Assembly (NCBI GenBank): GCA_049522495.1 | Contig: JBEKNU010000002.1 | Coordinates: 18,365 to 82,364, forward strand | DNA length: 64,000 nucleotides | Direction: 5' to 3' | From: Terriglobia bacterium | GTDB taxonomy: Bacteria > Acidobacteriota > Terriglobia > UBA7540 | Part shown: piece by piece, positions 17,779 through 60,576 of the stretch | Numbering within the stretch: the stretch's first letter is position 1 | Layout of the letters: each line of letters opens with the position of its first letter | Made by a program: the position numbers and the translations under genes | Notes under the pieces: generated by a model | The model's input: the letters and a program-made list of their open reading frames with translations, nothing else | Told to the model about the DNA's origin: nothing | Databases searched by the model: none

Positions 17779-17833
17779 TTGAACGGGTAACCGGTCTACT
17801 TATTAACATATTGGCGATAGAGGAGAGATTAAG

Positions 17834-19006: not shown

Positions 19007-19046
19007 TCCTTACCAAGCGGCAATATATCGAGCCCAAGGGGGAAAA

Positions 19047-20524: not shown

Positions 20525-20543
20525 AAGACGGAGGAAACAGATC

Positions 20544-22806: not shown

Positions 22807-23152
22807 GAGAGCGGCGTCTAATGGCTGACGGAATTCCCTGGGATCTCCGTCTCGGCCGCCGTTTTCGACACGACCACGGCGCCTTACTATGGACCTATTT
22901 TACCGGCAGGGCCCTTCGAGGATGACGCTCGACTACATGGATAGTTGTTGGGATAGCATCGCGAAGGGAGACCCGCAGCGACGCTGCTTTGCCTCATGGC
23001 GAAACTTCGCCAAGCTTGTCACGAGTACGATTCATCTGAGTGCAGATCGCGCCGCTACCACGCAGCCCAACGATGCACAGGGGCACCCCCCTTCACCATC
23101 CCAGTCCGCGGTCCTCTCGAGCAGTTCGGGCCTTGAGGGAAAGCGGGTGGGG

Positions 23153-27393: not shown

Positions 27394-27480
27394 GGCGTCG
27401 GGGCGCCTCTAAGGCTTATACTTGAGTCGGACGGTATTTCCATCAGGGTTCGCCGGCAGGTGAACCCATGGGGATGGTTT

Positions 27481-33500: not shown

Positions 33501-33694
33501 TTCACACCGAGGCCTTAGAATCTGATTCTTCCGACGCCAGTCCGCTACCCGGGGGCTTGATTATTACGAGGAGGCGCTCTTCAGGCGTTCGCCTTGGTTT
33601 CCACAAATGCTGACCGCTCTGATTGAGGATGCCCGGTTGTCCCTCTGGTTCCCGATTTCTGGCGATTGCAGCAAGAAGGCATAGGACTTGGACG

Positions 33695-44511: not shown

Positions 44512-45219
44512 GCATCGCCTCCCGGTGGAGTGAGGGAATATTTCGGTGGCGGTTCCGGACCGTGGCCGCAGCCAGTAACCCCGGACAAGGGCATTACCGT
44601 CCGCAGGGCTTTTCGACTTGGTGCCTGATACCAGTACCTCCTCTACCTTAGCGTCTCAGCGAACTCACCGCCCCTCTTGACCATAATCCCTGACGACTCC
44701 CCGCTGTCGGCAGATCACAATAGCTGTGCGGATATTGTCTCTCGGACGCAGTTGGCCATCAACCACGCGTTTCTTCCCTCGCATGCCACCCATCCAAGGT
44801 CTGCCCCCCCTCGGAATTGCTGAAATCCTCCTCAAGCATGCCGTTTCGTGCAAGGGATTTCATGCGCTCACGCCAAATCCCCGTCAAGGGTTGATTTAAC
44901 AACCCTTTAACATAAGTCTGTTGAAAAATGAAATAAAATGCAATCAGGGGCGTGAAAGAGCCCCGAATGACCATAGGGAATCTATTGGACTTTGATATTT
45001 TCCTCCCAACGCGAAACCGGCCAGCGGTTTTGGCTCAATCCGTCACTCTGCGGCTTTCGGGATCTCGTTTGCCGAGGCGTTCCCTTGTGGTAAATCCAAG
45101 CAACAACCGTGGTAAAATTTGAAGGATCGCGGAGTGTTTGTTGGAGGATGCGAAACCCACGTCAAAGTGCGGTTTTCGCGGGCGGAGGCTGGAAGTTCCT
45201 ACCGGCGTAATGTCCGTTT

Positions 45220-48200
45220 GTGGCGAGTATAACCACCCGTGGTGTTCTTCCGACAAGCCAGGTCTGCATAATGCTCACAAGAGTACCGAGTTCCGATAGT
45301 CGTGCCGTCCGCTCTTGCCCCCCGTCATCCGACAAGGAAGTTGCGACCATCCGGGAACTGATTGACCATATGGCCCGGACGCAGCCGGAGGCTTCCTTTC
45401 TCATCAGCCCTGAAACCGGACGAGTATTGACATTCCAGGGTTTACAAGAGCAGTCGAGGTTTCTCTCCACCCAACTTCGGGAGGCAGGATTAGAGCGTGG
45501 CGACAAGGTTGCCTTCTTGCTGGAGAACGGGTTGTTTACCGCACAGTTGTTCTTGGGAGCAATGTACGGAGGGTTCGTATCGGTGCCGTTGAATGTTCGC
45601 GCCGGCGTGTCCCAACTGTCCTACATGCTGGACCACTGTGACGCCAAAGTGGTTTTCGTCGCCGACGAGTACGCGACGATGATGGCCGAGGTGATGGCCC
45701 AGGTGCGGCGGACCGTACAGGCGATTCCCGCCGACATTGATGGCTTCCCTGCGGCGGGCGAAACACCTCCTTCGGCCACATCGCTGCCGGTCCCTGGGCC
45801 AGAGGACCAAGCGCTCCTGATGTACACCTCCGGCAGCACGGGTCATCCGAAAGCGGCAGTGCATTCCCATCGCACGGTGCTCTCCTTCGCCGCCAATAGC
45901 GTCCGTTCACACCAACTCGCCGGCGCGGACCGCTCCCTTTTGATGCTGCCGCTGTACCACATCAACGCGTCGTGCGTCACCCTGGTTCCCACGCTCATGA
46001 CTGGTGGATGCGTCGTCGTGCCCCATCGCTTCAGTGTCAGCCAGTTCTGGGACTGGCTGGACGAACACCGCTGTACGTGGTCGGCCGTGGTGCCGACGAT
46101 CATCGCTCAGCTTCTCGAGTGGGAAGATCCCCGTGCGGATAAGCGTCAAGCCGCCTTCCAGCGGATCCGGTTCGTACGTTCTTCTTCGGCGCCGCTGGCG
46201 CCGTCCCTGCACCGCGAGTTCCTTGATAAATTCCCTTTGTTGCTGATCCAGGCCATGGGCTCGAGCGAAGCGGGCAATGTTTTTTCCAATCCACTACCCC
46301 CAGGCAAGAACAAGATTGGATCGCCCGGCTTACCCTGGGGCTTCGAGGTCAAGATCGTTGATCGGGAGGGGGTTGAACTGGCAGCAGGAGAGCCCGGCGA
46401 AATCGTGCTTCGCGGTCCCGCCGTCATGCAGGGTTACTACAAGGAGCCGGAGGCGACGGCGGCGGTCCTTGACCCCGACGGCTGGCTGCACACCGGTGAC
46501 CTCGCGTATCGGGACGAAGACGGGTACTTCTTCGTGGTCGGCCGATCCAAGGAACTGATTATCAAAGGGGGAGTTAACATTGCTCCTCGGCAGATCGACG
46601 ACGTTCTGGAATCCCACCCGGCGGTGCGGGAAGCAGCCGCCGTAGGAGTTCCCGACCGTTACCTGGGTGAGGATCTCGTTGCTTTCGTGGTATTGCGCGC
46701 AGGAGTTGCCTGCGAGGAGAGGGAACTGCTCGCCTTTTGCGAAAGCCGATTGGGCCACTTTAAGACCCCAACACGGATCCACTTTGCCGACGACTTGCCC
46801 AAAGGCCCTTCCGGCAAAGTACAGCGGTTGCACTTGCGCGACGAGGCGGCACAGCTTGCCACGGGCAGCTCCGGTTCCTCTCGAGGCGAACTGGCGATAG
46901 CACTGGGCACTGGCCAGGTTGCACACCCTGGATTGCCGGCTGCCGGGTCGTCCATCGAGCAAATCATCGCCGAAACCTGGACGGAAGTCCTTTCGAAAGC
47001 GCCCGTGGACGCTGAGAGCAATTTCTTCGCGTTAGGGGGACACTCGCTGCTCGCTATGCAATGCGTGTCGCGTCTTCGCGAGAGAATCCCCGTTGCCCTT
47101 TCGCTGTCGGATTTCTTCGAGAACGCTACGGTGGCGCAGCAGGCCGCGCTTGTCCGGCGGCGATTGCCCCGGGACGAAGGTCAAGCCCTTGCGGGTGGAT
47201 CGGCCGCGGCTCGCGAAGAAGCCTGGCAGCTAAAGGTCGCGTCGTCCGTCAGCCCGCTGGCCATCCCTCCGCGGGATCCGGCGCTCCCTTGCCCTCTCAG
47301 CACCGCGCAGCGTCGGTTGTGGTTTATCGAACAGTTGAATCCCGGGTTGCCGCTTTACAACGAAGCTGAGGGCGTGCGGTTGCTCGGCGAACTCAATACC
47401 GAGGCGATGGAACGAGCGCTGAACGTTATCGTCGCACGCCACGAGGTGCTGCGCACTACCATCCAGGTAACGGACAACGAACCCGTGATGGTAGTCCACG
47501 AGAGCTGGCCGCTTCAGCTTAAGAAGATCGACCTGAGCGCATTGACCCCCGCGGAGCGGCAGGCAGAAGTCGAGCGCTTGCTCATTGACGAGCCGCGGCG
47601 CCTGTATCATCTCGAAGCCGAACCGGGAATCCGTGCGACGTTGCTCCGTTTGGCCCCCCGGGAGCATATCTTCATTCTGATGATGCACCATATCTTTAGC
47701 GACCGGTCATCGCTAGGGATTTTGTTTCGGGAGATGGCAACACTGTACCGCGCCTTTTGCCGCGGCGAGTCGATTGCCTTGCCTCCTCTGCTGATCCAGT
47801 ACGGAGATTATGCGGTTTGGCAGCAACAGAGGATTACGGACGCGGCGTCAGCCGAAGACCTGTCCTTCTGGACGGAGAACCTGCGTGGGGCGCCTCAACT
47901 CCTGGAATTGCCCGCGGATCGGCCCCGCCCGCTCACGCTTTCCTACCGCGGCGTCAAACGGCGCTTCCGGCTTAACCCCGCCTTGACCAAAGCTCTACGC
48001 GATGCCAGCCAACGGGAAAAGGCAAGCTTGTTCACCCTGTTTACCGCGGCGCTCGACACCCTGCTCTATCGTTACACGGGACGGGAAGACATCCTGTTGG
48101 GAATTCCGATCGCCGACCGGGAACGGCCGGAACTGCAATCGGTGATCGGTTTTTTGGTCCACACCTGCGTCTTGCGAACCGGGCTTTCGGGAGACATGAC

Positions 48201-51200
48201 GTTTCGGGAGTTGCTCGCCCTCGTTCAGAAGGAAATGTTGGAGCTTTACCGTCATCGCGCCGTGCCATTTGACGAGGTTGTGCGAAAACTCCGGCCGGAG
48301 CGCAACCCAAGTTACTCCCCGCTGTTCCAAGTGATGATCAATTGGCGCGATCGCGGTCTGCAACTGTCGTTTATCGGGTTGGAAGGACTTGTGGTGGAGC
48401 CGCTTCTGGCCCAGAGCGAAACGGCGAAGCTCGATTTGCAACTGTTCATAACCGACGGCGGGGACGAATTCTGGTTGGAGATGGAATACAGCACTGACCT
48501 GTTCGACGAGGCGCGCATCTCGCGAATGATCGGGCACTATCAAACCCTGCTGGAATCGGTGGCCTCTGATCCCGGCCGGCGACTGGCGGAATTGCCTTTG
48601 TTGACAGCGGAGGAGCGGCGCCAACTCCTGGTGGAATGGAATAACACCAGGGTCGATTATCCCGCTGATGCGTGCGTTCACGAGCTATTTGAAAGGCAGG
48701 CGAAAAGGACACCTGAGGCGGTGGCGGTGGAGTTCAATGGCGAACGATTGACATATTCCGAGTTGAACAGGCGAAGCACGGAGTTTGCTCAACACCTGCA
48801 AGCGCGGGGAGTTGGCCCGGACGTCCTTGTCGCTGTCTATGTCGACCGCTCGTTGGAATTGGTGATCGCCTTACTGGGAATTCTCAAGGCCGGAGGCGCT
48901 TACCTGCCCGTTGACCTGGTTTTTCCGCAGGAGCGGGTGGCATTTATGCTGGGTGATGCACAACCCCGAGTTTTGGTTACGGTTACGAAACTTCTGGCGG
49001 AACTTCCGCGTAACCAATCGGAGGTAGTCTGCGTCAATGACTTTGCGGCCCTGAGTGAGGCGCCGATGGCTCGGCCCCCGGAGTCCCGCCATTTGGCGTA
49101 CGTGATTTACACTTCCGGTTCCACAGGAAAGCCCAAGGGGGTTGAAATTTGCCACCGGGCGGTGGTGAATTTCCTGAACTCCATGCGACAAGTGCCGGGG
49201 ATGGAGGCGCAGGATACGCTGTTGTCTGTCACTTCCCCGTCATTCGACATTTTTGGCCTGGAACTGTGGCTGCCACTCACCAGCGGAGCTAAGGTGGTGA
49301 TCGTGTCGCAGGACGTGGCAATGGATGGAAGCCAACTTGCCAAGGTCATGGCCGCGCGCGGTGTGACGGTGATGCAGGCCACGCCGTCAACCTGGCGGGT
49401 GTTGTTGGAGGCAGGATGGGAGGGCGACCTGAGTTTGAAGATTCTCTGCGGTGGTGAAGCGTGGCCGGAAGAACTCGCCGCGCAACTGCTGCCCAAGGGC
49501 CGCGCGCTATGGAATATGTACGGGCCCACGGAGACCACCCTCGGGTCGGCCGTATACCCGGTGGAGAAGGGGACGCCGATTTTGATTGGGGATCCGATTG
49601 CGAACACGCAATTTTACGTGGTCGATAGTGACCTGCAGCCAGTGCCGGTGGGAGTGCCCGGCGAGCTTTTGATCGGAGGTGATGGTCTGGCGCGAGGCTA
49701 CTTGCGGCGTCCCGAGTTGACGGCCGAAAAGTTCATTCCCGATCCCTTCAGCGCGAGCGCGGGTTCGCGACTGTATCGGACCGGTGACTTGGTGCGCTAC
49801 CTGCCGGACGGCAATCTTGAGTTCCTCGGCCGGCTGGATCAACAGGTGAAAATCCATGGCTTCCGTATCGAGTTGGGTGAAATCGAAGCCGCGCTGCGCC
49901 AACATCCGGCCGTGCAGCAAACCGTCGTGATCGCGCGAGAGGATACGCCGGGAGACAAACGCCTTGTCGCCTACGTGGTGGTGAATCCCGAGTACGAAAT
50001 CGGCTCAGACGAAGCCGAATCGCATTCGGAACACCTTGACGGCTGGCAGACGATGTGGGACGAGACCTACCAGCAGTCGGCGGAGATTCCCGATCACACG
50101 TTCAACATCGCAGGGTGGAATAGCAGTTATACCGGCGAGGCCATACCCGCCGAGCAAATGCGCACATGGGTTGACACCACCGTCGAACGGATCCTTGCCC
50201 TGCGGCCGCAGCGAGTGTGGGAAATCGGTTGCGGCACCGGTTTGCTGCTCCACCGCCTGGCTCCCCACTGTCTCCATTATTACGCGACGGATTTTTCCGC
50301 CACCGCGGTGAATACCCTGCAACGGCAGATTGCCGGATCGGCTGTGACGAATAAGGTGGTGCTGAAGCAAGCCCAGGCGCATGACTTTACCGGCATCGAA
50401 GCAGGGAGCTTCGATGTTGTCATCCTGAACTCCGTCGCACAGTACTTTCCTGACGTCAATTATCTGGTGCGGGTGTTGGAAGGCGCGGTGCGGGCCGTGA
50501 AGCCCGGGGGCGCAATTTTCCTGGGCGACATTCGCAGCGAGCCGCTCCTGAACGCGTTTCATGCGGCGGTCCAACTGGAGCAGGCGCCTGCCTCGCTGCC
50601 AGGCGCTGATCTGCGGCAAAGGATTCAAAGGGCTCTGAGCCAGGAAAGCGAATTGGCCATCAGCCCCGGCTTTTTCATCGCCTTGTGGAAGCACCTGCCG
50701 GCCATTACCCAGGTGGAGATTCAACTCAAGCGGGGCCGTCATCACAACGAGTTGAGCCTCTTTCGTTACGATGTGGTCCTGCGCGTGGGAGCGACGGTTA
50801 AATCCACGGAAAACCAGACTCGCTTCGACTGGCAACAACGCGGGTTTTCGGTGCCCGATCTGCGCCGGTATCTGGAGGAGGAGCGGCCCGCCGCGCTCAC
50901 CCTGACGGGAGTGCCCAACGCCCGGCTGCAGCGTGAATTCAAGCTGCTTGAAATCCTCGCCGGCGTGGAATGTCCAGCGACGGTAGGGGAGCTCCGCGGA
51001 GCCCTGAGAGCGGACAGCGCGCCCAACGCGATCGACCCGGAGGATCTCTGGACTTTAGGTGAGTCGCTGGGTTACACCGTTCAAGTCCGCTGGTCGGATG
51101 GCGGAGCAGCGGCTTCGTGCGATGCGGTATTCCTGCGACGCGAGAACGGCGCGGGGGATGGGGTGGACTCGGTGTTCCATTTCCCGGGCGAGCCGAGTGC

Positions 51201-51780: not shown

Positions 51781-54700
51781 GCACCAGGAAGCTGACCAGC
51801 TCGATAGGATCGCTGTTATTGGCATGGCGGGACGTTTTCCGGATGCCCCCGACCTTGGGCAATTCTGGAAACACCTGTGCGCTGGTGTGGAGTCTGTAAC
51901 CACGTTGACGGATGAGCAACTCGCGTCCGCGGGTGTGGAACCTGAGGTGATCCGCGCGGCGAACTATGTGAAATCGAACGTGCTGTTGGAGGGCATCGAC
52001 CTCTTTGATGCCCGGTTTTTTGGCTTCACGCCTCGAGAGGCGGAGTTGACGGATCCTCAGCATCGGCTGTTCCTGGAGTGCGCTTGGGAGGCGCTGGAGG
52101 ACGCTGGCTACGATTCCGACAAGACTCGACTTCGGATTGGAGTGGTCGCTGGAGTTGGCACGAATTCCTACTTCGTATATAACCTGGCTTCAAATCCAGC
52201 CCTACTGAAGTCGCTGGACGAATTCATGAGGAGTATAGCGATTGAGAAGGATTTCCTTTCGACACGCATCTCCTACAAGCTAAACCTGCGGGGACCCAGC
52301 CTCACCGTGCAAACCGCCTGTTCCACCTCTTTGGTTGCGACCCACCTGGCCTGCCAGAGTCTGCTCAATGGAGAGTGTGACATGGCATTGGCGGGCGGTG
52401 TCTCAGTTCGGATTCCTCAGATTGCCGGCTACCTGCACGAACCAGGATCAGCGATGTCACCCGACGGTCACTGTTACGCTTTTGATGCCGCCGCTCAAGG
52501 AATGGTCAACGGCAGTGGAGCGGGCGTGGTTGTGCTCAAACGAATTGCCGATGCGCAGGCGGATGGCGACTCCATCCGCGCGGTCATTCGCGGCTCAGCG
52601 ATTAACAACGACGGTGCGGCAAAGATTGGCTATACGGCGCCTAGCGTGGAAGGGCAGGCGAGCGTGATTGCGGAGGCACAAGCCCTAGCCAGCGTGAGCG
52701 CTGATGAGATTAGTTATGTCGAGGCTCATGGCACGGCCACGGCCCTGGGGGACCCCATCGAGATTGCGGGCCTGACGAAAGCATTCCGCAGAACCAGCCA
52801 GAGGGACGGTTTCTGTGCGATCGGCTCGGTTAAGACCAACATTGGTCACCTTGGCGCCGCGGCAGGCGTTGCGAGTCTGATCAAGGTGGTGTTGGCTTTG
52901 CAGAACCGCAAGCTCCCCCCAAGCCTGAATTTCAAGCGGCCCAACCCCGCTATCGATTTCGTCCATAGCCCATTCTACGTGCAGCAAACACTGTCCGAGT
53001 GGCAGCCCGCGAATGGCCGGCGTGCGGCAGGCGTGAGTTCTTTTGGCCTCGGCGGGACGAATGCTCATGCCGTACTCGAAGAAGCGCCCGTCACCGACCC
53101 TTCCGGGCCATCCCGGCCCTGGCAGCTTCTTTTGCTGTCGGCTCACACAACTTCTGCTTTGGATAAGATGACGAGAAACCTCGGTGAGCACCTGAAGAAC
53201 AATCCTCTCTCCATCCTCGCCGATGTCGCCTATACGCTTCAGAGGGGCCGGAAGGCCTTTCCTCATCGCCGCATGTTGGTGTGCCAAAGCCTCGAGGACG
53301 CCGCCGCCGCACTGCAATCCCTGGACCCGGCACGAATATCATCACACCATCAAGAGCCGGCTCATCGAGATGTCGCCTTCATGTTTCCTGGCCAAGGCGC
53401 CCAGTACGCCAACATGAGCTTGGAGCTCTATCGGGCGGAATCGGAGTTTCAGGAACAGGTCGATCGTTGCTGCGAACTACTCAAGCCTCACCTTTCTTTT
53501 GATTTGCGGGCCATCCTGTATCCCGGGGATAAGGAGGTCGAGAGCGCTTCGCAGAAGCTGAAGCAGACACTGGTCGCTCAACCTGCTCTTTTCATAATCG
53601 AGTACGCCCTCGCAAAACTGCTCATGTCATGGGGCATAAAACCCGCCGCTTTGGTGGGCCATAGTATCGGCGAATATGTGGCGGCCTGTCTGGCCGGAGT
53701 GTTCTCCCTCGAAGACGCCCTGGCTCTCGTCGCTGCCCGAGGCCGACTCATGCAGGACCTCCCCCAAGGTTCCATGCTGGCCGTTTCTGTTTCGGAGGCA
53801 GAGATCGCGCCGCTTTTGAACGAAAGACTTTCCCTGGCCGCGGTCAACAGCCCTTCGCTGTGCGTCGTTTCGGGAGAAACGGAGGCAGTGAAGCATCTGG
53901 AGGAGGAGCTTTCGAAGAGGGGTGTGACCTGCCGCCACCTGCATACTTCTCATGCGTTTCATTCCAGGATGATGGATCCCATCCTGGGCAAGTTCACCCG
54001 AGAGGTAGAAAAAGCGGACCTTCATCCCCCGGAAATTCCGATTCTTTCCACGGTCACCGGCACCTGGACACATTCCGCGGAACTTGCCTCACCGGATTAT
54101 TGGGCCAGAAATCTGCGGCAGACCGTCCGCTTCTCCAAGTGCGTTCAAGAGTTGATGAAAGAGCCGGATAGAATCCTCCTGGAGGTCGGGCCGGGAAATG
54201 CCCTCGGGACGTTAGCCAGGCAGCATCCGGGTGGATCAGGCAAACGCATTGTGCTAACGACGATCCGCCACCCCCATGAGCAGACCTCGGATATTGCTTT
54301 CATCCTGAACACCCTCGGGCGACTCTGGCTTGCCAATGTTGAGGTAGACTGGTCCGGATTCTATAAGAAGGAACGCCGCCATCGAATTCCCTTACCGACC
54401 TATCCCTTTGAGCGACAGCGTTACTGGATTGAGCCATCGCAGGAGATGCCTGCCATGGGGGTGGCTCGAAGGTTGTCAGAGAAGAAGCCCGACATCGCGG
54501 AATGGTTTTATGTTCCATCATGGAAACGAGCGCAACTGCCCGACCATAGCAATGGCAGCGGACCCTCAACCCATAGTTTGTGCGCTTTGGTGTTCCTCGA
54601 CGAGGGCGGATTTGGCGCCAATCTCGTCAAGTTACTGCAGAATAGCGGGCAGCGCGTGACCGTTGTGAAAGCAGGAGCGAAGTTTAATCGAATCAGTGAC

Positions 54701-56395
54701 GGGTCCTTTACCATAAACCCTGAAGTGAGGGAAGACTACCAGACCTTGTGGAATGAACTTAAGGCAGGTGAACGGTCACCCAGCGCGATCGTGCATCTAT
54801 GGTGTCATACCAGCAGGGATGAGAAGCTATCGATCGCCGATTCCTGCGAGCACTTCCGCAAAGTGGGATTTAACAGTTTGCTGTTTCTGGCTCAAGCCAT
54901 TGGCGAGCAACCTTCCGGGGAACCGGTGCAAATCAAAGTCATTTCCAACCACCTCCATGAGGTAACGGGCGAGGAGTTTTTGAATCCTGCTAAGGCCGTC
55001 CTTCTTGGTCCGTGTCGGGTCATCCCTCAGGAGCTTCCCAACATACAGTGCACGAACGTTGATATGGGAGACAGCCAGCCAGCAGACGAATACGCGCAGT
55101 TGCTTGTGAAAGAACTAACCGCCAAGACTACGGATGCAGTTGTCGCCTACCGAGGGACACACCGGTGGGTACAAACGTTTGAACGCATAAAGTTGGGCAG
55201 AATCGACCGTTCCAAATCCCCGTTAAGAGAAGGAGGCGTATATCTCATTACGGGTGGTCTCGGCGGAATGGGTCTGGTTTTGGCCGAGTATTTGGCTCAA
55301 TCGGTGCATGCAAAACTTGTTCTGATTTCACGGACCGGCCTGCCCGCCAGAGAAAAATGGCAACAATGGCTGGACACGCACGAGGAACAGGATGCTGTTA
55401 GCCGAAAGATTCGAAAGGTACAATTGATCGAGAAACAAGGAGCAAAAGTCCTAATTCTGAGGGCCGATGTAACCGACGCCAATCAGATGAAGGCGGCCAT
55501 TGAGCAAGCGCATGGTCAATTTGGAAAAATCCATGGAGTGATACACGCCGCAGGCATCGGCGATCCCGGCACCATCCTGGAGAAAAAACCTGAAGTGGCA
55601 GCAGGCGTTATGGCGCCGAAAGTGGAGGGAACTCTATTGCTCGGTCAACTGCTGCGTGAAAGCAGGTTGGATTTTTTCGTCCTCTGCTCCAGCCTCAGTG
55701 TACATGTGGGGGGAATAAAAAGAGTGGATTATTGCTCGGCGAATGCCTATTTGGATGCATACGCGCAGAGGTATCATAGAGAGAATAACGTCATCTCAAT
55801 AGATTGGGGTTTCTGGCAGGAAGTTGGTATGGCTGTCAACACTGAAGTGCCGTTGCGTCTCAAGGAGGAGAGAGAACGGGTTCTGCGGCTTGGAATGTCG
55901 CCCGACGAGGGAATAGAGGCATTTGGCAGGATTCTGGGGAGGCCCTATCCGCAAGTGATCGTCTCTCCGTCACAAGACCTTACCGCGTTGATGCCAAGAA
56001 GCGATATGGGCGGGGAATCGGGTGCTGTAGAACAGAAAACGGAGTCTCCTTTAGGCAAACCGACGCACGCACGTCCTGAACTGTCCAGTGACTATGTTGT
56101 TCCCGGAAATTCAACGGAGCAGACCATTGCCGATATCTGGCAGGAACTTCTTGGCATTGCCAACATCGGGATCCACGACAATTTCTTCGAATTAGGCGGA
56201 CATTCGTTGCTGGCACCAAGCCTCGTAGCCCGCTTGAAGAGCGTATTTCCCATCGAACTCTCCGTGGCAAGCCTGTTCGAAAACCCCACGGTCCATTCGC
56301 TCAGCGAGAAGGTACGGCAAGGAGGGCGGGATGGATCATCCTTCGACGAGAGCAGGAGCCGGGGACAGAAACGGAAGGAGCGCATTCGAGGATGA
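51773..56395 (+). CDS. type I polyketide synthase module: KS-AT-KR-CP
   Basis: ORF track. Start overlaps the NRPS stop (ATGAGTAA). KS: IAVIGMAGRFPDAPD, TACSTS (Cys codon 52319-52321), EAHGTATALGDP, NIGHLGAAAG. AT: GHSIGEY (Ser codon 53663-53665) and HAFHS (malonyl-type). KR: YLITGGLGGMGL, YCSANAYLD. Carrier: FFELGGHSLLA. No DH or ER motifs seen. Confidence 0.92.
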   Translation: MSKHQEADQLDRIAVIGMAGRFPDAPDLGQFWKHLCAGVESVTTLTDEQLASAGVEPEVIRAANYVKSNVLLEGIDLFDARFFGFTPREAELTDPQHRLFLECAWEALEDAGYDSDKTRLRIGVVAGVGTNSYFVYNLASNPALLKSLDEFMRSIAIEKDFLSTRISYKLNLRGPSLTVQTACSTSLVATHLACQSLLNGECDMALAGGVSVRIPQIAGYLHEPGSAMSPDGHCYAFDAAAQGMVNGSGAGVVVLKRIADAQADGDSIRAVIRGSAINNDGAAKIGYTAPSVEGQASVIAEAQALASVSADEISYVEAHGTATALGDPIEIAGLTKAFRRTSQRDGFCAIGSVKTNIGHLGAAAGVASLIKVVLALQNRKLPPSLNFKRPNPAIDFVHSPFYVQQTLSEWQPANGRRAAGVSSFGLGGTNAHAVLEEAPVTDPSGPSRPWQLLLLSAHTTSALDKMTRNLGEHLKNNPLSILADVAYTLQRGRKAFPHRRMLVCQSLEDAAAALQSLDPARISSHHQEPAHRDVAFMFPGQGAQYANMSLELYRAESEFQEQVDRCCELLKPHLSFDLRAILYPGDKEVESASQKLKQTLVAQPALFIIEYALAKLLMSWGIKPAALVGHSIGEYVAACLAGVFSLEDALALVAARGRLMQDLPQGSMLAVSVSEAEIAPLLNERLSLAAVNSPSLCVVSGETEAVKHLEEELSKRGVTCRHLHTSHAFHSRMMDPILGKFTREVEKADLHPPEIPILSTVTGTWTHSAELASPDYWARNLRQTVRFSKCVQELMKEPDRILLEVGPGNALGTLARQHPGGSGKRIVLTTIRHPHEQTSDIAFILNTLGRLWLANVEVDWSGFYKKERRHRIPLPTYPFERQRYWIEPSQEMPAMGVARRLSEKKPDIAEWFYVPSWKRAQLPDHSNGSGPSTHSLCALVFLDEGGFGANLVKLLQNSGQRVTVVKAGAKFNRISDGSFTINPEVREDYQTLWNELKAGERSPSAIVHLWCHTSRDEKLSIADSCEHFRKVGFNSLLFLAQAIGEQPSGEPVQIKVISNHLHEVTGEEFLNPAKAVLLGPCRVIPQELPNIQCTNVDMGDSQPADEYAQLLVKELTAKTTDAVVAYRGTHRWVQTFERIKLGRIDRSKSPLREGGVYLITGGLGGMGLVLAEYLAQSVHAKLVLISRTGLPAREKWQQWLDTHEEQDAVSRKIRKVQLIEKQGAKVLILRADVTDANQMKAAIEQAHGQFGKIHGVIHAAGIGDPGTILEKKPEVAAGVMAPKVEGTLLLGQLLRESRLDFFVLCSSLSVHVGGIKRVDYCSANAYLDAYAQRYHRENNVISIDWGFWQEVGMAVNTEVPLRLKEERERVLRLGMSPDEGIEAFGRILGRPYPQVIVSPSQDLTALMPRSDMGGESGAVEQKTESPLGKPTHARPELSSDYVVPGNSTEQTIADIWQELLGIANIGIHDNFFELGGHSLLAPSLVARLKSVFPIELSVASLFENPTVHSLSEKVRQGGRDGSSFDESRSRGQKRKERIRG

Positions 56396-59300
56396 CGCCG
56401 GGGGATGGGGTACAGCCCGTGAAGAAGCCAGAAACCTCTGATCGCTGGAGCGGTTCTGAGATAGCGATCATTGGTATGGCCGGCCGCTTTGCCGGTGCGC
56501 CGGACATTGAAGCGTTCTGGAATAATCTGCGGGATGGAGTGGAGTCCATCACCTTCTTCACCGATGAGCAATTGCTGGCCTCAGGGGTTGATCCCAAAGC
56601 CCTGCAGAGCAACCACTACGTCAAAGCAGGTTCCGTACTGGAGGGAGTCGAGCTCTTTGATGCCGCCTTCTTCGGATTCAATCCGCGAGGGGCCGCAGCG
56701 ATGGATCCGCAACATCGCCTTTTCCTGGAATGCGTGTGGGAGGCGATCGAAGCGGCCGGGTACGACCCGGAGCGCTACAAGGGCGCCATCAGTTTATTTG
56801 CCGGCGCAAGCATGAGCAGTTATTTTCTTAACAACCTTTATGCGAACCCGGACGCCTTTGACCTCGCCGAAATGTATCAGGGCTTTCTCTCCAACGCCCA
56901 AGATTCTTTGGCCACGCTCGTTGCCTATAAACTGAATTTGAAGGGAGCCTGTTACACCGTCGGGACCTTCTGTTCCACTTCCCTGGTGGCCGTCCATCTC
57001 GCCTGCCAGAGCTTGCTGAATTTTGAATGTGACATGGCCGTGGCCGGGGGCGTAAGGGTCGGCGTACCACAACATGCCGGCTACTGGTATCGAGAGGGCC
57101 TGATCGTTTCCCCGGATGGGCATTGCCGGCCCTTTGATGCCAAAGCGCAGGGAACGGTGTTCGGCAACGGGTTGGGGGCCGTGGTGCTGAAAAGGTTTAA
57201 AGACGCTTTAGCGGATGGCGATCGAATTGACGCGGTGATCCTCGGCTCGGCAACAAACAATGACGGTTCCCTGAAGGTGAGTTACACGGCGCCCAGCGTG
57301 ACCGGCCAGTCTGAGGTCATCGTAGAGGCGCTGGCTAATGCCGGGGTCCAGCCCGAGACAATCACCTACGTGGAGGCCCACGGGACCGGAACTGCCCTTG
57401 GGGATCCTACGGAAGTTGCTGCCCTTACCCATGCCTTTCGCAGTGGAACGCAGAAGAAGGGCTTCTGTGCCCTGGGTTCACTGAAGTCAAACATCGGACA
57501 CGTGGATGCGGCGGCCGGCGTGGCCGGTCTGATCAAAACCGTTCTCGCGCTCAAGCACCAGCAAATTCCTCCCACCCTGCATTTCCATGAGCCGAATCCC
57601 AGTATTGATTTTGCAAGCAGCCCGTTCTACGTCAATTCGACCCTTTCCGAATGGAAAAGCGATGGCCTCCCCCGACGCGCCGGCCTCAGCGCATTCGGCG
57701 TGGGAGGGACAAACGCCCACGTAATTCTCCAGGAGGCCCCTGTAGCTGAACCCTCGGGTCCGTCCCGGCCTTGCCAACTGCTTGTACTCTCCGCCAAGAC
57801 CCGATCCGCTCTGGAAACGGCCACAGGGAATTTGAGCAAGTTCTTTAAGAGCCACCCCGATCTGAACCTCCCGGATGCCGCCTACACCCTGCAGGTAGGT
57901 CGAAGAGCTTTCAACCACCGCAGGGTCATCGTCTGCCAGGATGTTGAGGATGCCTTGTCCGCGATTGCAGCGGCGGACTCGAAACCCCTGGCGACCGCCT
58001 ACCAGGATAAAAGGAATCCCCCTGTCACATTCATGTTTTCTGGACAGGGTGCACAATATGTGAGCATGGGGTCGGAGCTTTATAGGACCGAGTCAAGATT
58101 TCGCGCACAAATCGATCGCTGCGCGGAAATACTTCAGTCTCATCTTTCGCTCGATATACGGCAGATCCTATACGCGGACGCTGCCGGTGTCGAAGAGGCC
58201 GCGCGAAGGCTGGGCCAAACATCCATCACCCAACCCGCACTATTCATCGTGGAATACGCCCTGGCGCGATTGTGGATGGCATGGGGGGTGCATTCGACCG
58301 ATATGGTAGGGCACAGCATCGGAGAGTATGTTGCCGCCTGCCTTGCAGGAGTATTCTCCCTGGAAGACGCCTTGGCGCTAGTGGCCGCCAGGGGACGGCT
58401 CATGCAGAGTCTACCCGGTGGCAGTATGCTGGCGGTTCGGCTTCCGGAGGACGCGATTCGGTCGCTTATCGACAATGAACTTTCCCTGGCGGCGATCAAC
58501 AGCCCTTCCTTATGCACCGTTTCCGGCGCAGGCAAAGCTGTGGAAGATTTCAAAGGGCGGCTTTCCGAAAGGAATGTGGATTGCCGCCCCTTGCATACCT
58601 CCCACGCCTTTCATTCAAGTATGATGGACCCGGTTATAGATGCATTTGCTGACGAAGTGAAACGAACGCGAAGGAACCCTCCCCAAATTCCCTTCATTTC
58701 GAATGTCACCGGAACGTGGATTACTCCGGACGAAGCGGTGGCCCCCGAATACTGGGCGAGGCACCTTCGCCACACCGTCCGATTCTCCGACGGGGTTCGA
58801 GAATTGTTGAAGGAGCCAAACAGAGTTTTTCTGGAGGTGGGTCCCGGAAACACGCTCAGTACGCTGGTGAAACAACATCTGAACGGATCGGAACATAAGG
58901 TAGTACTTTCCTCGATCCGTCACCCCCATGAGCAAGATTTGGATGTTGCTTTTATTCTGAACACTCTCGGCCGGCTCTGGTTGACCGGGGTTGAGGTGGA
59001 TTGGTTCGGGTTCCATGAAAAGGAGAGACGCCATCGGGTCCTTCTGCCGACCTATCCCTTTGAGCGCCGGCGTTATTGGGTCGAGCCGGTAGATCCACCA
59101 CGAGGTTATCTTGCGGCACGCGCGGGCTTGATCCGAAAGCAAGAAAATCTGCCGCGCTCCGTCGAACCGGAGATGACGCAGGAGGAGCTGGCTCCCAGAG
59201 ATTCAGCGCTGCAAAGTGAGTACGTGGCTCCGCAAACCGACGTGGAGAAAAAGCTCGCAACCCTCTGGCGAGAGTCTTTCGGCATCGACAAAATTGGCAT

Positions 59301-60306
59301 CCATGACAATTTCTTCGATCTGGGTGGGGACTCAATTCTGGCTGTTCACATCTTCGTTCAAATCGAGAAGGTACTGAAAGTTAAGTTGCCCCTCGCCACG
59401 CTCCTCGGAGCTCCCACAATTGCGCAGCTCGCTCAGGTTCTCCGCCAGGAGGCCCCAACGTCCGGGTGGTCGCCGCTGGTGACAATTCAGCCCACAGGCT
59501 CGCGTCCTCCGTTCTTTTGTATTCATGGGGCTGGCGGTGGCGTCCTCATCTATCGAGACCTTTCGCGACACCTGGGCTCTGACCAACCGTTCTACGGTCT
59601 GCAAGCCCAGGGACAGGACGGGAGTTGCTTGCCCCTTACCAGAATCGAGGACATGGCTACCCTTTACGTCAAGGAGATTAAAAGGGTGCGGCCACACGGG
59701 CCGTATTTCCTCGGCGGATACTGCGGGGGCGGGACCATTGCCTATGAGGTGGCGCAGCAGCTCCAAGCGGAGGGAGAACAGATCGGCTTGTTGGCAATGT
59801 TCGACACGTCAAACTGGTGCAAAGTTCCCCGCCCTTCGATCTGGGATAGAACTTACCGCTCTGTGGAGACACTGATATTTCATGCGGCCAATTTCCTTTC
59901 TCTAGATTCCAAAGGGAAGGGCAAGTTCTTTTTGGAAAAGGCCAAGATCTTGCGCAGCCGGATCCCCGTGTGGCGAGGGATGCTGCTCGCCAAGTTCGAC
60001 AAGCACTCACGGATGCCCGGGTCAGAATCCCGCGTGTTAGGACAGATCTGGCAGGCGAATGACCGGGCAGGCTTGAATTACATCCCCAAGCCCTTTCCCG
60101 GCACGGTCACAGATTTTCGCCCCAAGAAGCAGTATCGGAGGCTCAACCATCCAAGTGTGAAATGGGATCAGTTGGCGGAAGGCGGGCAAGAGATTGTTGT
60201 TCTGCCCGTCTACCCCGGCGGCATGCTGGTCGAGCCTTTCGTCAGGGACTTGGCCGATGCCCTGAGAAGATCCATCGACAACGCGATTAACCATCGCCCA
60301 AGCTGA
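56392..60306 (+). CDS. type I polyketide synthase module: KS-AT-CP-TE (terminal)
   Basis: ORF track. ATGA overlap with the upstream stop. KS: IAIIGMAGRFAGAPD, TFCSTS, EAHGTGTALGDP, NIGHVDAAAG. AT: GHSIGEY, HAFHS. Carrier: FFDLGGDSILAVH. TE: PPFFCIHGAGGGVLIYRDL ... GPYFLGGYCGGGTIAYEVA. Confidence 0.92.
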   Translation: MTPGDGVQPVKKPETSDRWSGSEIAIIGMAGRFAGAPDIEAFWNNLRDGVESITFFTDEQLLASGVDPKALQSNHYVKAGSVLEGVELFDAAFFGFNPRGAAAMDPQHRLFLECVWEAIEAAGYDPERYKGAISLFAGASMSSYFLNNLYANPDAFDLAEMYQGFLSNAQDSLATLVAYKLNLKGACYTVGTFCSTSLVAVHLACQSLLNFECDMAVAGGVRVGVPQHAGYWYREGLIVSPDGHCRPFDAKAQGTVFGNGLGAVVLKRFKDALADGDRIDAVILGSATNNDGSLKVSYTAPSVTGQSEVIVEALANAGVQPETITYVEAHGTGTALGDPTEVAALTHAFRSGTQKKGFCALGSLKSNIGHVDAAAGVAGLIKTVLALKHQQIPPTLHFHEPNPSIDFASSPFYVNSTLSEWKSDGLPRRAGLSAFGVGGTNAHVILQEAPVAEPSGPSRPCQLLVLSAKTRSALETATGNLSKFFKSHPDLNLPDAAYTLQVGRRAFNHRRVIVCQDVEDALSAIAAADSKPLATAYQDKRNPPVTFMFSGQGAQYVSMGSELYRTESRFRAQIDRCAEILQSHLSLDIRQILYADAAGVEEAARRLGQTSITQPALFIVEYALARLWMAWGVHSTDMVGHSIGEYVAACLAGVFSLEDALALVAARGRLMQSLPGGSMLAVRLPEDAIRSLIDNELSLAAINSPSLCTVSGAGKAVEDFKGRLSERNVDCRPLHTSHAFHSSMMDPVIDAFADEVKRTRRNPPQIPFISNVTGTWITPDEAVAPEYWARHLRHTVRFSDGVRELLKEPNRVFLEVGPGNTLSTLVKQHLNGSEHKVVLSSIRHPHEQDLDVAFILNTLGRLWLTGVEVDWFGFHEKERRHRVLLPTYPFERRRYWVEPVDPPRGYLAARAGLIRKQENLPRSVEPEMTQEELAPRDSALQSEYVAPQTDVEKKLATLWRESFGIDKIGIHDNFFDLGGDSILAVHIFVQIEKVLKVKLPLATLLGAPTIAQLAQVLRQEAPTSGWSPLVTIQPTGSRPPFFCIHGAGGGVLIYRDLSRHLGSDQPFYGLQAQGQDGSCLPLTRIEDMATLYVKEIKRVRPHGPYFLGGYCGGGTIAYEVAQQLQAEGEQIGLLAMFDTSNWCKVPRPSIWDRTYRSVETLIFHAANFLSLDSKGKGKFFLEKAKILRSRIPVWRGMLLAKFDKHSRMPGSESRVLGQIWQANDRAGLNYIPKPFPGTVTDFRPKKQYRRLNHPSVKWDQLAEGGQEIVVLPVYPGGMLVEPFVRDLADALRRSIDNAINHRPS

Positions 60307-60576
60307 TTATTTTTCTCACAGCCGCTCCCTCATATTCATGTCCGTTGCCATGTGTCTGGCCTGAATATGCGGTTTCACGGGGCAAATTTTTGTCATGTCG
60401 GGAATAGAAGCCGCTGGAACTTTGTGGGCGCAAAGCATGTGAGATTCCCGTCTATCCTAGAGGTATGTTCGTCGAGCCCTCGTCCAGGCGTGGGCTTAGG
60501 AGCTCAGCGTGTGTTAAAGAGAAACCAAATAGGTTAAAGCCCGACATAGGGCCCACGCTGCAGAGAGGGAGGGATT

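Follow-up and report, generated by a model that had tools for sequence, protein, structure and literature searches.

Three overlapping open reading frames in a 64-kb stretch of bacterial DNA, hereafter the window, are best explained as a functional hybrid NRPS-PKS assembly line forming the 3′ module of a Wzx/Wzy-type exopolysaccharide (EPS) locus, and not as a free-standing secondary-metabolite cluster. The thioesterase (TE) that ends the line belongs to a large, unstudied clade recurring inside sugar-polymer gene clusters, and therefore its product, instead of leaving as a free lactone, may be grafted onto the exopolysaccharide.

The assembly line and its predicted chain

The line comprises three genes with the following domains.

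45220-51780, + strand: ORF A, NRPS loading part and module 1, CAL-ACP-C-A(N-MT)-PCP (2186 aa, GTG start; Pfam, motifs)
45337-46854, + strand: acyl-CoA-ligase-like loading domain (TSGSTGHPK; C-terminal Lys in PSGKV)
46942-47169, + strand: carrier protein 1 (Pfam PP-binding; GGHSL, residue ~606)
47293-48630, + strand: condensation (C) domain (Pfam 1.2e-93; HHIFSDR)
48688-51414, + strand: A domain with MT inserted between A8 and A9 (5wmm match, Stachelhaus extraction, motifs)
51454-51642, + strand: carrier protein 2 (Pfam PP-binding; GGDSF)
51773-56395, + strand: ORF B, KS-AT-KR-ACP (1540 aa; Pfam, motifs)
56392-60306, + strand: ORF C, KS-AT-ACP-TE (1304 aa; Pfam, motifs)
56392-59439, + strand: N-terminal part of ORF C, KS-AT-ACP (Pfam, motifs)
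59479-60303, + strand: terminal TE of the Cys/no-His clade (motifs, alignments, AF2, Foldseek)

ORF A overlaps ORF B by ATGAGTAA at 51773-51780, and ORF B overlaps ORF C by ATGA at 56392-56395; coordinates and both overlaps are exactly those given in an earlier, sequence-only reading of this DNA. Pfam searches returned the domain order proposed there at highly significant values (AMP-binding 1e-166, Condensation 1e-93, two KS at ~1e-70, two AT at ~1e-57, KR 1e-47 and Thioesterase 5e-27, together with four PP-binding domains and a methyltransferase). All three ORFs are long and uninterrupted, and motif inspection showed every core catalytic residue to be intact except in the TE; the KS, AT and carrier-protein sites are free of inactivating substitutions. 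The closest genomes to the window are Acidobacteriota/Terriglobia, in agreement with the Acidobacteria-like origin suggested before. It was confirmed that these ORFs encode a genuine and intact hybrid NRPS-PKS line of a soil Acidobacterium. ORF A probably starts at the ATG at 45271, because the alignment with its L073 ortholog begins at residue 18.

Domain set, order and catalytic motifs match those of hybrid NRPS-PKS lines that begin by lipo-initiation (an acyl ligase-ACP-C starter) and have a backbone N-methyltransferase set into an interrupted A domain (TioS A4-M4 type, PDB 5wmm). Collinearity of the A(MT) region with 5wmm extends over query 14-915 (E = 6e-156), the MT occupying ~50140-51189 with the SAM motif VWEIGCGTG. 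The loading domain has as nearest PDB entries oxalate-CoA ligase (2e-78), feruloyl-CoA synthetase, malonyl-CoA synthetase and FadD13, and its NCBIfam match to a long-chain-fatty-acid-CoA ligase subfamily (405 bits) lies under the cutoff. The A-domain code obtained by Stachelhaus extraction, DILALGMLGK, resembles that for Gly and gives weak backing to the small amino acid expected by the sequence-only reading; however, 4 of its 10 positions differ, and the A domains of most relatives carry a canonical Ser code. In ORF B, the KS (QTACSTSL, EAHGTAT, KTNIGH) and ACP (GGHSL) motifs are in place and the KR has its Lys, Ser, Tyr and Asn, although motif inspection revealed neither an LDD nor a Trp stereo-motif. 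The corresponding motifs of ORF C are GTFCSTSL, HGTGT and KSNIGH for the KS and GGDSI for the ACP, with no reductive domain detected by Pfam or motifs in its N-terminal part. Both ATs are malonyl-type (GHSIGE...HAFH), as the earlier note of HAFH in each had implied.

Read from these domains, the ligase-like domain would load a carboxylic acid onto the ACP, the C domain would N-acylate one amino acid with a Gly-like code and the embedded MT would N-methylate it. Module 2 would then add a malonate and reduce the beta-keto group, and module 3 would add a second malonate without reduction, to give a predicted ACP-bound 6-(N-acyl-N-methylamino)-5-hydroxy-3-oxo-acyl thioester. The collinear logic proposed earlier agrees with this domain content, and its remark that the pathway was not a recognised one also stands: none with the same domain order is described in searchable literature. 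Compared with the modular cis-AT lines that it resembles, this one sits in an EPS locus and ends in a TE without the canonical Ser and His.

A thioesterase clade with Cys for Ser and Pro for His

The nucleophile elbow of the TE, GYCGG, carries Cys1111 (TGC at 59722) where the canonical residue is Ser. The acid is Asp1138, and the catalytic His position is occupied by Pro1275 (CCC at 60214), which aligns with the His of His-type relatives and also, weakly, with 'LPGDHSS' of AB3403. This active site was overlooked by the sequence-only reading, whose lactone or free-acid release presupposed a canonical cyclising or hydrolytic TE. The AF2 model of the domain (pLDDT 91.5) falls among type I TEs in Foldseek searches.

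Among the best 150 representatives clustered at 50% identity, 119 share the signature Cys/(Asp or Glu)/Pro, and the TE is C-terminal in 114. Asn1141, His1164 (59881), Arg1190 and Tyr1274 are conserved in the clade, His1164 being a lid residue with 93% conservation, and the first three accompany the Cys/Pro pair in relatives down to ~45% identity. Such co-conservation across diverse representatives indicates that purifying selection maintains an active site of a distinct kind. Clade members occur at the end of NRPS/PKS lines and also as stand-alone ACP-TE proteins, the latter in 78 of 80 metagenome loci.

ObiF1 (beta-lactone), SulM (beta-lactam) and AB3403 (uncharacterised) share with this TE the alpha/beta-hydrolase type I fold and a Cys in a GxCxG elbow. 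All three structurally characterised Cys-TEs retain an Asp-His dyad (PMC11298585), whereas the clade described here has Pro at the His position and either Asp or Glu as acid. AB3403, among the best sequence and fold matches, has its acid after beta6 ('position I'), as found here; in ObiF1 and SulM the Asp is at position II, and their substrates end in beta-hydroxy or beta-amino alpha-amino acids, unlike the malonyl-derived beta-keto acyl terminus predicted for our line.

The exopolysaccharide array and its conserved partners

The assembly line occupies the 3′ portion of a co-directional array (9603-63108, ~53 kb, + strand), within which the ORF lists place every long ORF with a family match on the + strand. 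Its main features outside the line are listed below.

9603-10358, + strand: UpxY/RfaH/LoaP-type NusG-like antiterminator at the array head (NCBIfam NF033644 antiterm_UpxY, 118 bits, cutoff 100)
17834-21776, + strand: priming sugar transferase, GFO/IDH/MocA oxidoreductase and DegT aminotransferase, a WbpB/WbpE-like amino-sugar module (Pfam Bac_transf 2.6e-68, GFO_IDH_MocA 2.9e-25, DegT_DnrJ_EryC1 2.1e-111)
22889-24337, + strand: GT4 glycosyltransferase (Pfam Glycos_transf_1 / Glyco_transf_4)
29280-30854, + strand: Wzx-type flippase (Pfam Polysacc_synt_3 / Polysacc_synt)
41054-42712, + strand: CE4-like protein, distantly paralogous to 43147-44511 (NCBIfam NF053580 deacetylase_VimE, weak)
43147-44511, + strand: CE4 / polysaccharide-deacetylase-fold protein (AF2 model, Foldseek)
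60577-61749, + strand: short 2-isopropylmalate-synthase (IPMS)-like gene (NCBIfam NF002086, 601 bits, cutoff 532)
62242-63108, + strand: sugar-1-phosphate nucleotidyltransferase-like gene (Pfam NTP_transferase 5e-12; NCBIfam GalU-like, weak)

Upstream of the line lies a genuine EPS locus of the Wzx/Wzy type, containing Wzz, Bac_transf, GFO/MocA and DegT, GT4, GT2s, Wzx, UDP-sugar dehydrogenases and a pair of CE4-like genes. The sequence-only reading had seen this locus but treated it as a mere neighbour, a view at odds with the statistical tie between the TE clade and glycan loci described below. No PPTase, FemAB or Wzy gene was detectable in the window, and its matches to PEP-CTERM-system export are sub-threshold. 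Co-transcription of ORF A with the EPS genes is putative, a 708-nt gap lying ahead of ORF A.

The gene at 43147-44511 gave no match in Pfam or NCBIfam searches; its AF2 model (pLDDT 74) has polysaccharide deacetylases and CE4 esterases as best Foldseek matches (probability 1.0). The paralog at 41054-42712 (22% identity, E = 5.6e-5) has VimE as sole family match (E = 2.9e-15; 56 bits, where the cutoff is 440). Homologs of 43147-44511 adjoin the TE gene in loci L054, L067, L006, L072 and L073, in L068, L069 and L071 by tblastn with the L067 copy alone, and CE4-like homologs are present in 19 of 55 metagenome loci. A CE4 deacetylase-like gene also precedes the cassette in its Terriglobia relatives wherever the upstream flank was recovered. 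Of all genomic neighbours, the CE4-like gene accompanies the Cys/no-His TE most consistently. On the other side of the line, the IPMS-like gene (390 aa, profile positions 3-387 of 516; Pfam HMGL-like and HCS_D2) follows the cassette in L001, L003, L065, L066 and L074 at 54-98% identity; as a Terriglobia accessory it may supply the starter acid or a homologated amino acid. In L066, too, an NTP-transferase gene is found downstream. The absence of tailoring genes from 44512-60576, noted previously, holds because the interval contains the three ORFs alone, but conserved partners that were left out then lie just outside it at either end.

Nor is the cluster an orphan singleton. The same cassette is kept in several Terriglobia relatives (metagenome contigs and MAGs), where as a rule the A domain is Ser-type and the MT is absent, and a second copy exists at 95.6% DNA identity. 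Taken as a whole, the earlier picture, a lone orphan cluster with lactone or acid release, is supported in part: the architecture holds, whereas the isolation and the canonical TE do not.

Glycan loci around the thioesterase clade

Across phyla the clade is statistically tied to glycan loci, with 47 of 68 TE loci against 1 of 45 controls (p = 4e-14), in a test confounded by taxonomy, by relatedness among loci and by markers drawn from the clade loci themselves. Enriched around the TE are Wzx/Wzy loci with Wbp-like amino-sugar genes, CE4-like deacetylases, FemAB (VimA-like) proteins and PPTases. In the independent loci L054 (Desulfobacteraceae), L067, L068 and L069, a Cys-TE PKS lies amid DegT, PPTase, CE4-like, GT, Wzy and Wzx genes, and the GT4 adjoining the TE gene in L054 is 40% identical to that of the window (tblastn E = 1e-101). 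The ACP-TE loci L087, L093, L131 and L147 adjoin FemAB (TIGR03019-like), CE4-like, PPTase and GT4 genes as well as Bac_transf, GFO, DegT and Hexapep genes, and KS and C domains are absent from L087 and L093. Within the recovered flanks of L008, L009, L003 and L071 no obvious glycan genes were seen.

Fate of the assembled chain

The clade-wide replacement of His by Pro and the glycan-locus setting, which extends to stand-alone ACP-TE proteins, led us to propose an external sugar amine or hydroxyl as acceptor. Tentatively, and with somewhat less than even confidence, we suggest that an amino sugar of the EPS, as candidate acceptor, receives the N-acyl-(N-methyl)aminoacyl-diketide from the Cys-TE. 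The chain would pass to Cys1111 by trans-thioesterification, and the thioester acyl-enzyme would be resolved by a sugar that belongs either to the EPS repeat unit or to a nucleotide- or lipid-linked precursor of that unit. The CE4-like enzymes encoded next to the line could unmask the accepting amine, or the WbpB/WbpE-like pair could install it, the module at 17834-21776 being a candidate source; the resulting EPS would bear a lipo-aminoacyl-polyketide side chain.

The Pks13 thioesterase of mycobacteria transfers an acyl chain to trehalose, using a canonical Ser-Asp-His triad. It is a recurrent sequence and fold match (~19% identity in the Foldseek alignment), and its likeness to our proposal is that of a terminal PKS TE off-loading to a sugar acceptor rather than to water. 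The suggested logic would also parallel, by analogy, the Wbp/Vim linking-sugar pathway of Porphyromonas and Tannerella, in which WbpA/B/E/D, the CE4 deacetylase VimE and the FemAB-type VimA place Ser or Gly on the freed 2-amine of a deacetylated amino sugar (PMC7468200). The window likewise has a WbpB/WbpE-like oxidase/aminotransferase pair, a UDP-sugar dehydrogenase and CE4-like deacetylase(s); the A domains of the cassette family point to a Ser- or Gly-type donor, and FemAB genes stand beside many clade TEs. Unlike that pathway, the window has no FemAB gene and a weak VimE similarity, the proposed donor is a carrier-protein thioester from an A domain or NRPS-PKS, and the proposed transferase is a TE domain.

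A small-molecule pathway is a serious though rather doubtful account, in which cyclisation by the TE yields a 6-substituted 4-hydroxy-5,6-dihydro-2-pyrone, or hydrolysis the acid, and the free amphiphile is secreted. Collinear logic leads to a delta-hydroxy-beta-keto thioester, for which delta-lactonisation is chemically favoured. A Cys thioester is the more reactive acyl-enzyme and needs less base catalysis for intramolecular attack, and the known Cys-TEs ObiF1 and SulM are cyclases. The conserved lid His1164 could restore a base, in which case the TE would act as a cyclase or hydrolase of the ordinary kind. Tailoring typical of small molecules is found in L010, where an O-methyltransferase beside the TE would suit O-methylation of the enol in a pyrone or pyrrolinone, and in L044, with an EryCIII-like GT. 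Gene adjacency may then reflect later glycosylation of a released product or co-regulation for biofilm or surface functions, as proposed for N-acyl amino acids near PEP-CTERM loci. As far as the account of Craig et al. 2011 in PMC7293339 goes, N-acyl amino acid synthase (NAS) genes of soil bacteria are linked to PEP-CTERM/exosortase EPS loci, which ties an N-acyl amino acid step to EPS as in the window and is a precedent for the transfer model as well. Each NAS is one GNAT-like protein whose products are free N-acyl amino acids, whereas here the N-acyl amino acid would be made by an NRPS module and extended by two PKS modules. Against transfer to EPS also speak the clade loci without obvious glycan genes in the recovered flanks, the confounded enrichment, the failure to detect PPTase, FemAB and Wzy genes in the window and the gap before ORF A, and in minimal A + PCP-TE loci the TE could just release a PCP-tailored amino acid. 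However, stand-alone ACP-TE proteins accompanied by a ligase alone have no delta-hydroxyl to cyclise, and a cyclase or hydrolase leaves unexplained the loss of the catalytic His in at least 119 sequence clusters, the CE4-like partner and the strong glycan-locus enrichment.

It is improbable that the product is instead a lipid-like primer or anchor, a glycolipid aglycone modelled on PKS-made glycolipids, with the released or TE-bound chain glycosylated by GTs of the locus and the CE4-like enzyme stripping an N-acyl or N-formyl cap instead of a sugar acetyl. GT4 and GT2 genes do flank the cassette in many loci, the GT4 shared with L054 co-occurs with it, formyl- or acyl-capped amino acid starters could be protecting groups, and CE4-fold enzymes are amidohydrolases. 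The same evidence fits sugar N-acylation equally, though, while the Wzx/Wzy/Wzz and Bac_transf genes point to a normal undecaprenyl-phosphate-primed polymer and the stand-alone ACP-TE systems hold amino-acid-tailoring genes, not lipid-building ones. Finally, decay of the cluster through loss of the TE catalytic Ser and His is strongly disfavoured and scarcely credible: the TE fails the canonical triad, but every other active site is intact, the ORFs are uninterrupted and overlapping, and the commonness of the Cys/Pro signature implies purifying selection.

The assembly line and its active sites

The assembly line itself belongs to a very well known kind, and an orphan NRPS-PKS alone is ordinary. 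What is unusual is that its thioesterase (TE) comes from a large, apparently uncharacterised clade that departs from canonical TEs at the catalytic histidine, and that the same clade is tied to polysaccharide loci. The sequence-only reading had described three co-directional, translationally coupled genes; their coordinates agree exactly with the ORF list, and the overlaps, ATGAGTAA between ORFs A and B and ATGA between ORFs B and C, were read directly in the sequence. The domain order was likewise recovered by Pfam with very strong scores.

Genes of the assembly line
45220-51780, + strand: ORF A, AMP-binding(+C)-PP-Condensation-AMP-binding-(methyltransferase)-PP
51773-56395, + strand: ORF B, KS-AT-KR-PP
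56392-60306, + strand: ORF C, KS-AT-PP-Thioesterase

The true start of ORF A is probably the ATG at 45271, because alignment with the ortholog in the related locus L073 begins at residue 18. Inactivating substitutions in the KS, AT or carrier-protein active sites, named by the sequence-only reading as a sign of a dead cluster, were looked for by motif reading, and the active sites were intact in all. KS1 (TACSTS/EAHGTAT/KTNIGH) and KS2 (TFCSTS/HGTGT/KSNIGH) both keep Cys-His-His, both ATs carry GHSIGE and HAFH and are of the malonyl type as first read, and the serine of GG(H/D)S is kept in 4/4 carrier proteins. Strict motif expressions had raised the idea of an inactive KS or carrier protein, which was discarded once direct reading showed the common variants TACSTS, HGTAT and GGDSF. 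The KR has the GGLGGMG NADPH motif and the catalytic Lys, Ser, Tyr and Asn (APK, SSLS, YCSAN); its stereochemistry is not predictable because motif reading found neither the LDD nor the Trp stereo-motif. The C domain contains HHIFSDR. Core motifs are intact in both adenylating domains of ORF A: the loading domain has its nearest matches among acyl-CoA ligases (oxalate, malonate, feruloyl, FadD13) and retains AMP-binding_C, and the A domain keeps TSGSTGKPK, NMYGPTE, YRTGD, GRLDQQVK and PNGKV, with a code that begins with D and ends with K. No PPTase gene was found within the window; Sfp-type PPTases flank the cassette in the related loci L065-L070.

The methyltransferase is inserted in the A domain between A8 and A9, after GRLDQQVKIHGFRIE and before LPDYMVP, with an intact SAM motif (VWEIGCGTG). 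The A-MT-A region is collinear with PDB 5wmm (E = 6e-156), the interrupted A domain of TioS, which carries a backbone N-methyltransferase. Most copies of the cassette lack this domain, and it is not private to the window since L073 and L074 also have it. The specificity code, extracted against a GrsA fragment that reproduces its own code, is DILALGMLGK. It resembles the glycine code, DILQLGLIWK, and because 4/10 positions differ, the small amino acid of the sequence-only reading is plausible rather than established. This Gly-like code is common to the window, L001 and the second NRPS of L003; most orthologous A domains have the canonical serine code DVWHISLVDK.

A cysteine thioesterase with proline at the histidine position

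The TE of ORF C adopts an alpha/beta-hydrolase TE fold with a lid (AF2 pLDDT 91.5), with Foldseek probability 1.0 to 7crn, 4zxh (AB3403), 9f7b, 6ojd, Pks13 TE and FAS TE; its neighbours are type I TEs, GbnD6, oocydin and NocB being named among them. The nucleophile elbow reads GYC(1111)GG in place of GxSxG, and the Cys nucleophile is present in 81/87 aligned relatives. Where canonical TEs have a C-terminal GxH motif, the sequence is VYP(1275)GGMLVEP, so that after the last strand of this TE Pro1275 is found and no catalytic His. The Pro1275 column holds His in nine His-type relatives (MAFFT alignment), and the clade profile placed Pro under the His of LPGDHSS in AB3403, in a weak match. Since the GYCGG elbow and the type I fold are in place and Pro stands in the His column, the ORF C TE has the fold and nucleophile of canonical TEs and fails to be one at the histidine alone.

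The signature is not a one-off mutation, as the Cys motif occurs with the same C-terminal motif in 80/120 close relatives of ORF C, and the Cys/Asp-or-Glu/Pro combination occurs in 119 of the best 150 50%-identity representatives from an exhaustive search of 1.84 billion representative proteins. In 114 of these 119 proteins, which range from 263 to 4,036 residues, the TE is C-terminal. Co-conserved among them are His1164 (111/119), Asn1141 (102/119) and Arg1190 (101/119). His1164, which lies in the lid, may be a relocated catalytic base. Cys1111, Asn1141, His1164, Arg1190, Tyr1274 and Pro1275 are defined targets for enzymology.

The structurally characterised Cys-TEs, SulM, ObiF1 and AB3403, all keep the Asp-His dyad (PMC11298585); the ORF C TE shares their Cys without their His. 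In addition, its acid, Asp1138, lies 27 residues past the Cys at position I, and not at position II (after beta7) as in ObiF1 and SulM, and the terminal unit is a malonyl-derived beta-keto acyl group, not a beta-hydroxy or beta-amino alpha-amino acid. Acid position, missing His and substrate type together rule out a beta-lactone- or beta-lactam-forming TE of the ObiF1/SulM type. Whatever the acceptor, a large conserved Cys-TE clade without the canonical His challenges the textbook Ser/Cys-His-Asp release mechanism. The close homologs are nearly all unnamed metagenome proteins, and in the searchable literature we found no description of the clade or of its tie to polysaccharide loci, and no pathway of the same architecture.

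The cassette in related genomes

The nearest genomes are Acidobacteriota (Ca. Sulfotelmatobacter, 81%; MAG MFD04463, 78%), in line with the Acidobacteria-like origin first proposed. The cluster is not the isolated orphan that it had been taken for: the three-gene cassette recurs in L001/L049, L003/L004, L065, L066, L070, L072 and L073, and the DNA of L074 is 95.6% identical to window positions 49820-61300.

The differences between copies are informative. An extra NRPS-TE gene is present in L003 and L065. The ACP-C-A segment of the window (46942-50139) is 88/84/75% identical to that of the second NRPS of L003 (15642-18710; CAL-ACP-C-A-PCP-TE) and 58/69/51% identical to that of the first, and the Gly-like code accompanies segments resembling the second L003 NRPS. 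This closer likeness to the second NRPS than to the first suggests that recombination exchanged the amino-acid module of the window line. In L067 (1754-5345) and L068 (1775-5371) a formyltransferase and an A-PCP, fused in L068, replace the ligase-ACP-C loader, as in the initiation of linear gramicidin. The L067 A domain carries a Ser code; chains presumably start as an N-formyl amino acid in both loci, N-formyl-serine in L067. A stand-alone KR-ACP gene lies between the two PKS genes in L065 (8083-9996) and L066 (8086-9996), and in L070 (10001-15784) KR-ACP makes up the N-terminal part of a fusion with the KS-AT-ACP-TE protein. KR-ACP without a KS or AT is an odd module.

Association of the thioesterase clade with glycan loci

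The EPS locus reported 5' of the cassette is a genuine Wzx/Wzy EPS locus. It encodes a Wza-like exporter, Wzz, a P-loop ATPase, Bac_transf, a GFO/MocA oxidoreductase and a DegT aminotransferase (WbpB/WbpE-like), GT4, three GT2s, a Wzx flippase, methyltransferases, UDP-sugar dehydrogenases and epimerases. A search of the window for a Wzy-type polymerase found none. In and 5' of the locus, three long ORFs had no Pfam or NCBIfam match (27460-29118, 33623-35104 and, on the - strand, 3343-5936) and a further one (16153-17493) had only a very weak match to a PEP-CTERM-associated outer-membrane protein; one of these four may be Wzy.

Cys-TE PKS genes lie inside glycan loci in four further independent contexts.

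Gene content of four other glycan loci with a Cys-TE PKS
L054 (Desulfobacteraceae): CE4-like, DegT, GT4, GT4, Wzy, Wzx
L067: DegT, PPTase, formyltransferase, A-PCP, PKS, PKS-TE, CE4-like, Wzy, GT2s, deacetylases
L068: Hexapep, DegT, F-A-PCP, PKS, PKS-TE, PPTase, C-A-PCP, epimerases, Wzy, Wzx
L069: three GT4s, C-A-PCP, PKS-TE, PPTase, FemAB

When metagenomes were scanned with the TE profile, at least 526 relatives came up. Stand-alone ACP-TE proteins, about 375-436 aa long and bearing the Cys/Pro signature as well, make up 78 of the best 80. In the four ACP-TE loci inspected (L087, L093, L131 and L147) the gene adjoins FemAB-like (TIGR03019-like), CE4-like, PPTase, GT4, Bac_transf, GFO/MocA, DegT and Hexapep genes, and a stand-alone adenylating enzyme and amino-acid-tailoring enzymes are also encoded. 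Pfam annotation revealed no KS or C domain in L087 or L093. Both of these soil-metagenome loci encode a homoserine O-succinyltransferase, a Cys/Met-metabolism PLP enzyme and flavin N-oxygenase-like enzymes, to which L093 adds a class IV aminotransferase, an acetolactate-synthase-like TPP enzyme, an ATP-grasp-like protein and a second ACP-TE. Together these genes resemble a pathway to an unusual amino acid, placed in a Wbp-like sugar locus.

Overall, glycan markers occurred in 47/68 clade loci and in 1/45 control PKS/NRPS loci (p = 4e-14), an enrichment confounded by taxonomy, marker origin and relatedness among loci. Some loci run counter to the association: the recovered flanks of L008, L009, L003 and L071 contain no obvious glycan genes; L010 has an O-methyltransferase 3' of the TE, and L044 an EryCIII-like GT. 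For NRPS/PKS genes in O-antigen or EPS loci the literature searched offered only loose precedents, such as Collimonas carenaemin (separate loci, unproven).

Accessory genes beside the cassette

Two conserved accessory genes lie just outside the interval inspected by the sequence-only reading (44512-60576).

Accessory genes and a shared glycosyltransferase gene
43147-44511: 454-aa CE4-like protein
60577-61749, + strand: short 2-isopropylmalate-synthase-like (IPMS-like, LeuA-type) protein, NF002086, 601 bits against a cutoff of 532
22889-24337, + strand: GT4 glycosyltransferase

The 454-aa product had no family match, and the fold of its AF2 model (pLDDT 74) is matched by those of polysaccharide deacetylases and CE4 esterases. 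The neighbouring 552-aa ORF (41054-42712) is a distant paralog whose sole match, a weak one, is the sugar deacetylase VimE. We had considered the 454-aa gene as specific proof of a glycan linkage, a view tempered by the size of its family: with 8,000 members or more, it is so common in Terriglobia that adjacency in the window alone means little. What carries weight is that homologs recur next to the TE in distant phyla. Homologs lie directly 3' of the Cys-TE gene in L054, L067 and L006 (a Nitrospirae-like genome) and directly 5' of the NRPS gene in L072 and L073. The L067 copy also matches L068, L069 and L071 (tblastn, matches not inspected individually), and the window protein finds matches in 19/55 metagenome loci. 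The GT4 may be a second conserved partner of the clade: it is 40% identical (E = 1e-101) to a GT4 of the L054 MAG (16859-18187) located two genes 3' of the Cys-TE gene, and similar GT4s (32-36% identity) occur in 13/55 metagenome loci.

The IPMS-like protein spans just positions 3-387 of the 516 in the NF002086 profile. In Terriglobia this short gene (385-390 aa, 54-98% identity) is retained 3' of the cassette even with genes between.

Short IPMS-like copies in related loci
L001: 13983-15140
L003: 19987-21159
L065: 17552-18724
L066: 16153-17325
L074: also present

No copy lies within 10 kb in L070 or in the formyl-loaded variants. The gene product might provide the ligase domain with its starter acid, or else furnish a homologated amino acid.

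Release of the chain

The sequence-only reading had predicted both a chain and its release as a simple lactone or acid. The chain follows from the domains; the release is called into question by the His-less Cys site, the stand-alone ACP-TEs and the glycan-locus linkage. An acyl starter would be condensed onto one N-methylated amino acid and extended by two malonyl units with beta-keto reduction at the first only, to give an ACP-bound 6-(N-acyl-N-methylamino)-5-hydroxy-3-oxo-acyl thioester. The chain would then pass onto Cys1111 and from there to an EPS sugar, on an amine or a hydroxyl; the amine would be exposed by the CE4-like enzymes or installed by the WbpB/E-like pair. We prefer such a transfer, while giving it somewhat less than even confidence, because of the His-less Cys site, the stand-alone ACP-TEs and the glycan linkage with CE4-like and FemAB-like partners. 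We infer all functions in release from sequence and gene context.

In the Wbp/Vim pathway the CE4 deacetylase VimE and the FemAB-type VimA swap an N-acetyl group for Ser or Gly (PMC7468200). Transfer to a sugar would mirror this deacetylate-then-reacylate logic, and Ser and Gly are the two A-domain types inferred in the cassette family. Of the pathway parts, the window has GFO/MocA, DegT, UDPG dehydrogenase and two CE4-like genes, with the VimE match weak; no FemAB gene was found in the window, whereas the FemAB-type transferase is present in L069 and in 19/55 metagenome loci. N-acyl amino acid synthase genes, which are linked to PEP-CTERM/exosortase EPS loci (Craig et al. 2011, cited in PMC7293339), are a second documented precedent.

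Release of a free delta-lactone or acid is a serious but doubtful alternative, to which we give less credence than to transfer: a 5-hydroxy-3-oxo thioester closes readily to a lactone, the known Cys-TEs catalyse cyclisation, and a base might be provided by His1164; the features that favour transfer stand on the other side. We also considered that a ligase paired with an ACP-TE must transfer, since hydrolysis would make a futile cycle. That argument is weakened by a known strategy in which tailoring takes place on the PCP and hydrolysis then frees the product. Formation of a glycolipid aglycone, or removal of a cap, is unlikely, and a dead cluster is strongly disfavoured and highly improbable because the Cys/Pro signature is conserved.

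Beyond transfer in the window, we advance tentatively, and with lower confidence, that the Cys-TE clade marks a widespread, unrecognised class of carrier-protein-dependent glycan-acylating systems, with the TE as an acyl-S-carrier-protein:amino-sugar acyltransferase, in Acidobacteriota, Desulfobacterota, Nitrospirota and other environmental phyla. A-domain and ACP-TE pairs would graft amino acids, and the window line whole chains, onto EPS or O-antigen repeat units. If so, assembly-line-decorated polysaccharides would merge two biosynthetic worlds usually kept apart. Should the TE pass its chain to a sugar, acidobacterial EPS, important in soil aggregation and survival, would bear lipopeptide-polyketide decorations, and thousands of clusters of abundant soil bacteria that genome mining misfiles as small-molecule BGCs would really serve polysaccharide tailoring. 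For natural-product discovery, collinear product prediction for the window cluster may fail at release.

Transcriptional organization

Between 9603 and 63108 all long ORFs with family matches are on the + strand. At the head of this ~53-kb co-directional array, which has the NRPS-PKS at its end, stands an antiterminator gene.

Head of the array
9603-10358, + strand: UpxY/RfaH/LoaP-type NusG-like antiterminator, 118 bits against a cutoff of 100

Expression of the EPS genes and of the PKS genes may be coupled through processive antitermination. A non-coding gap of 708 nt (44512-45219), with the AT-rich stretch GTTGAAAAATGAAATAAAATGCAATCAGG inside, precedes ORF A. Scans of it and of the region after ORF C for Rfam families, consensus promoters and terminators gave no match; such scans are weakly informative in this phylum. 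A histidine kinase and a NarL-type response regulator (6326-8840) precede the antiterminator gene, and NusG-like genes are found near the clade TE in L001 and L087 too.
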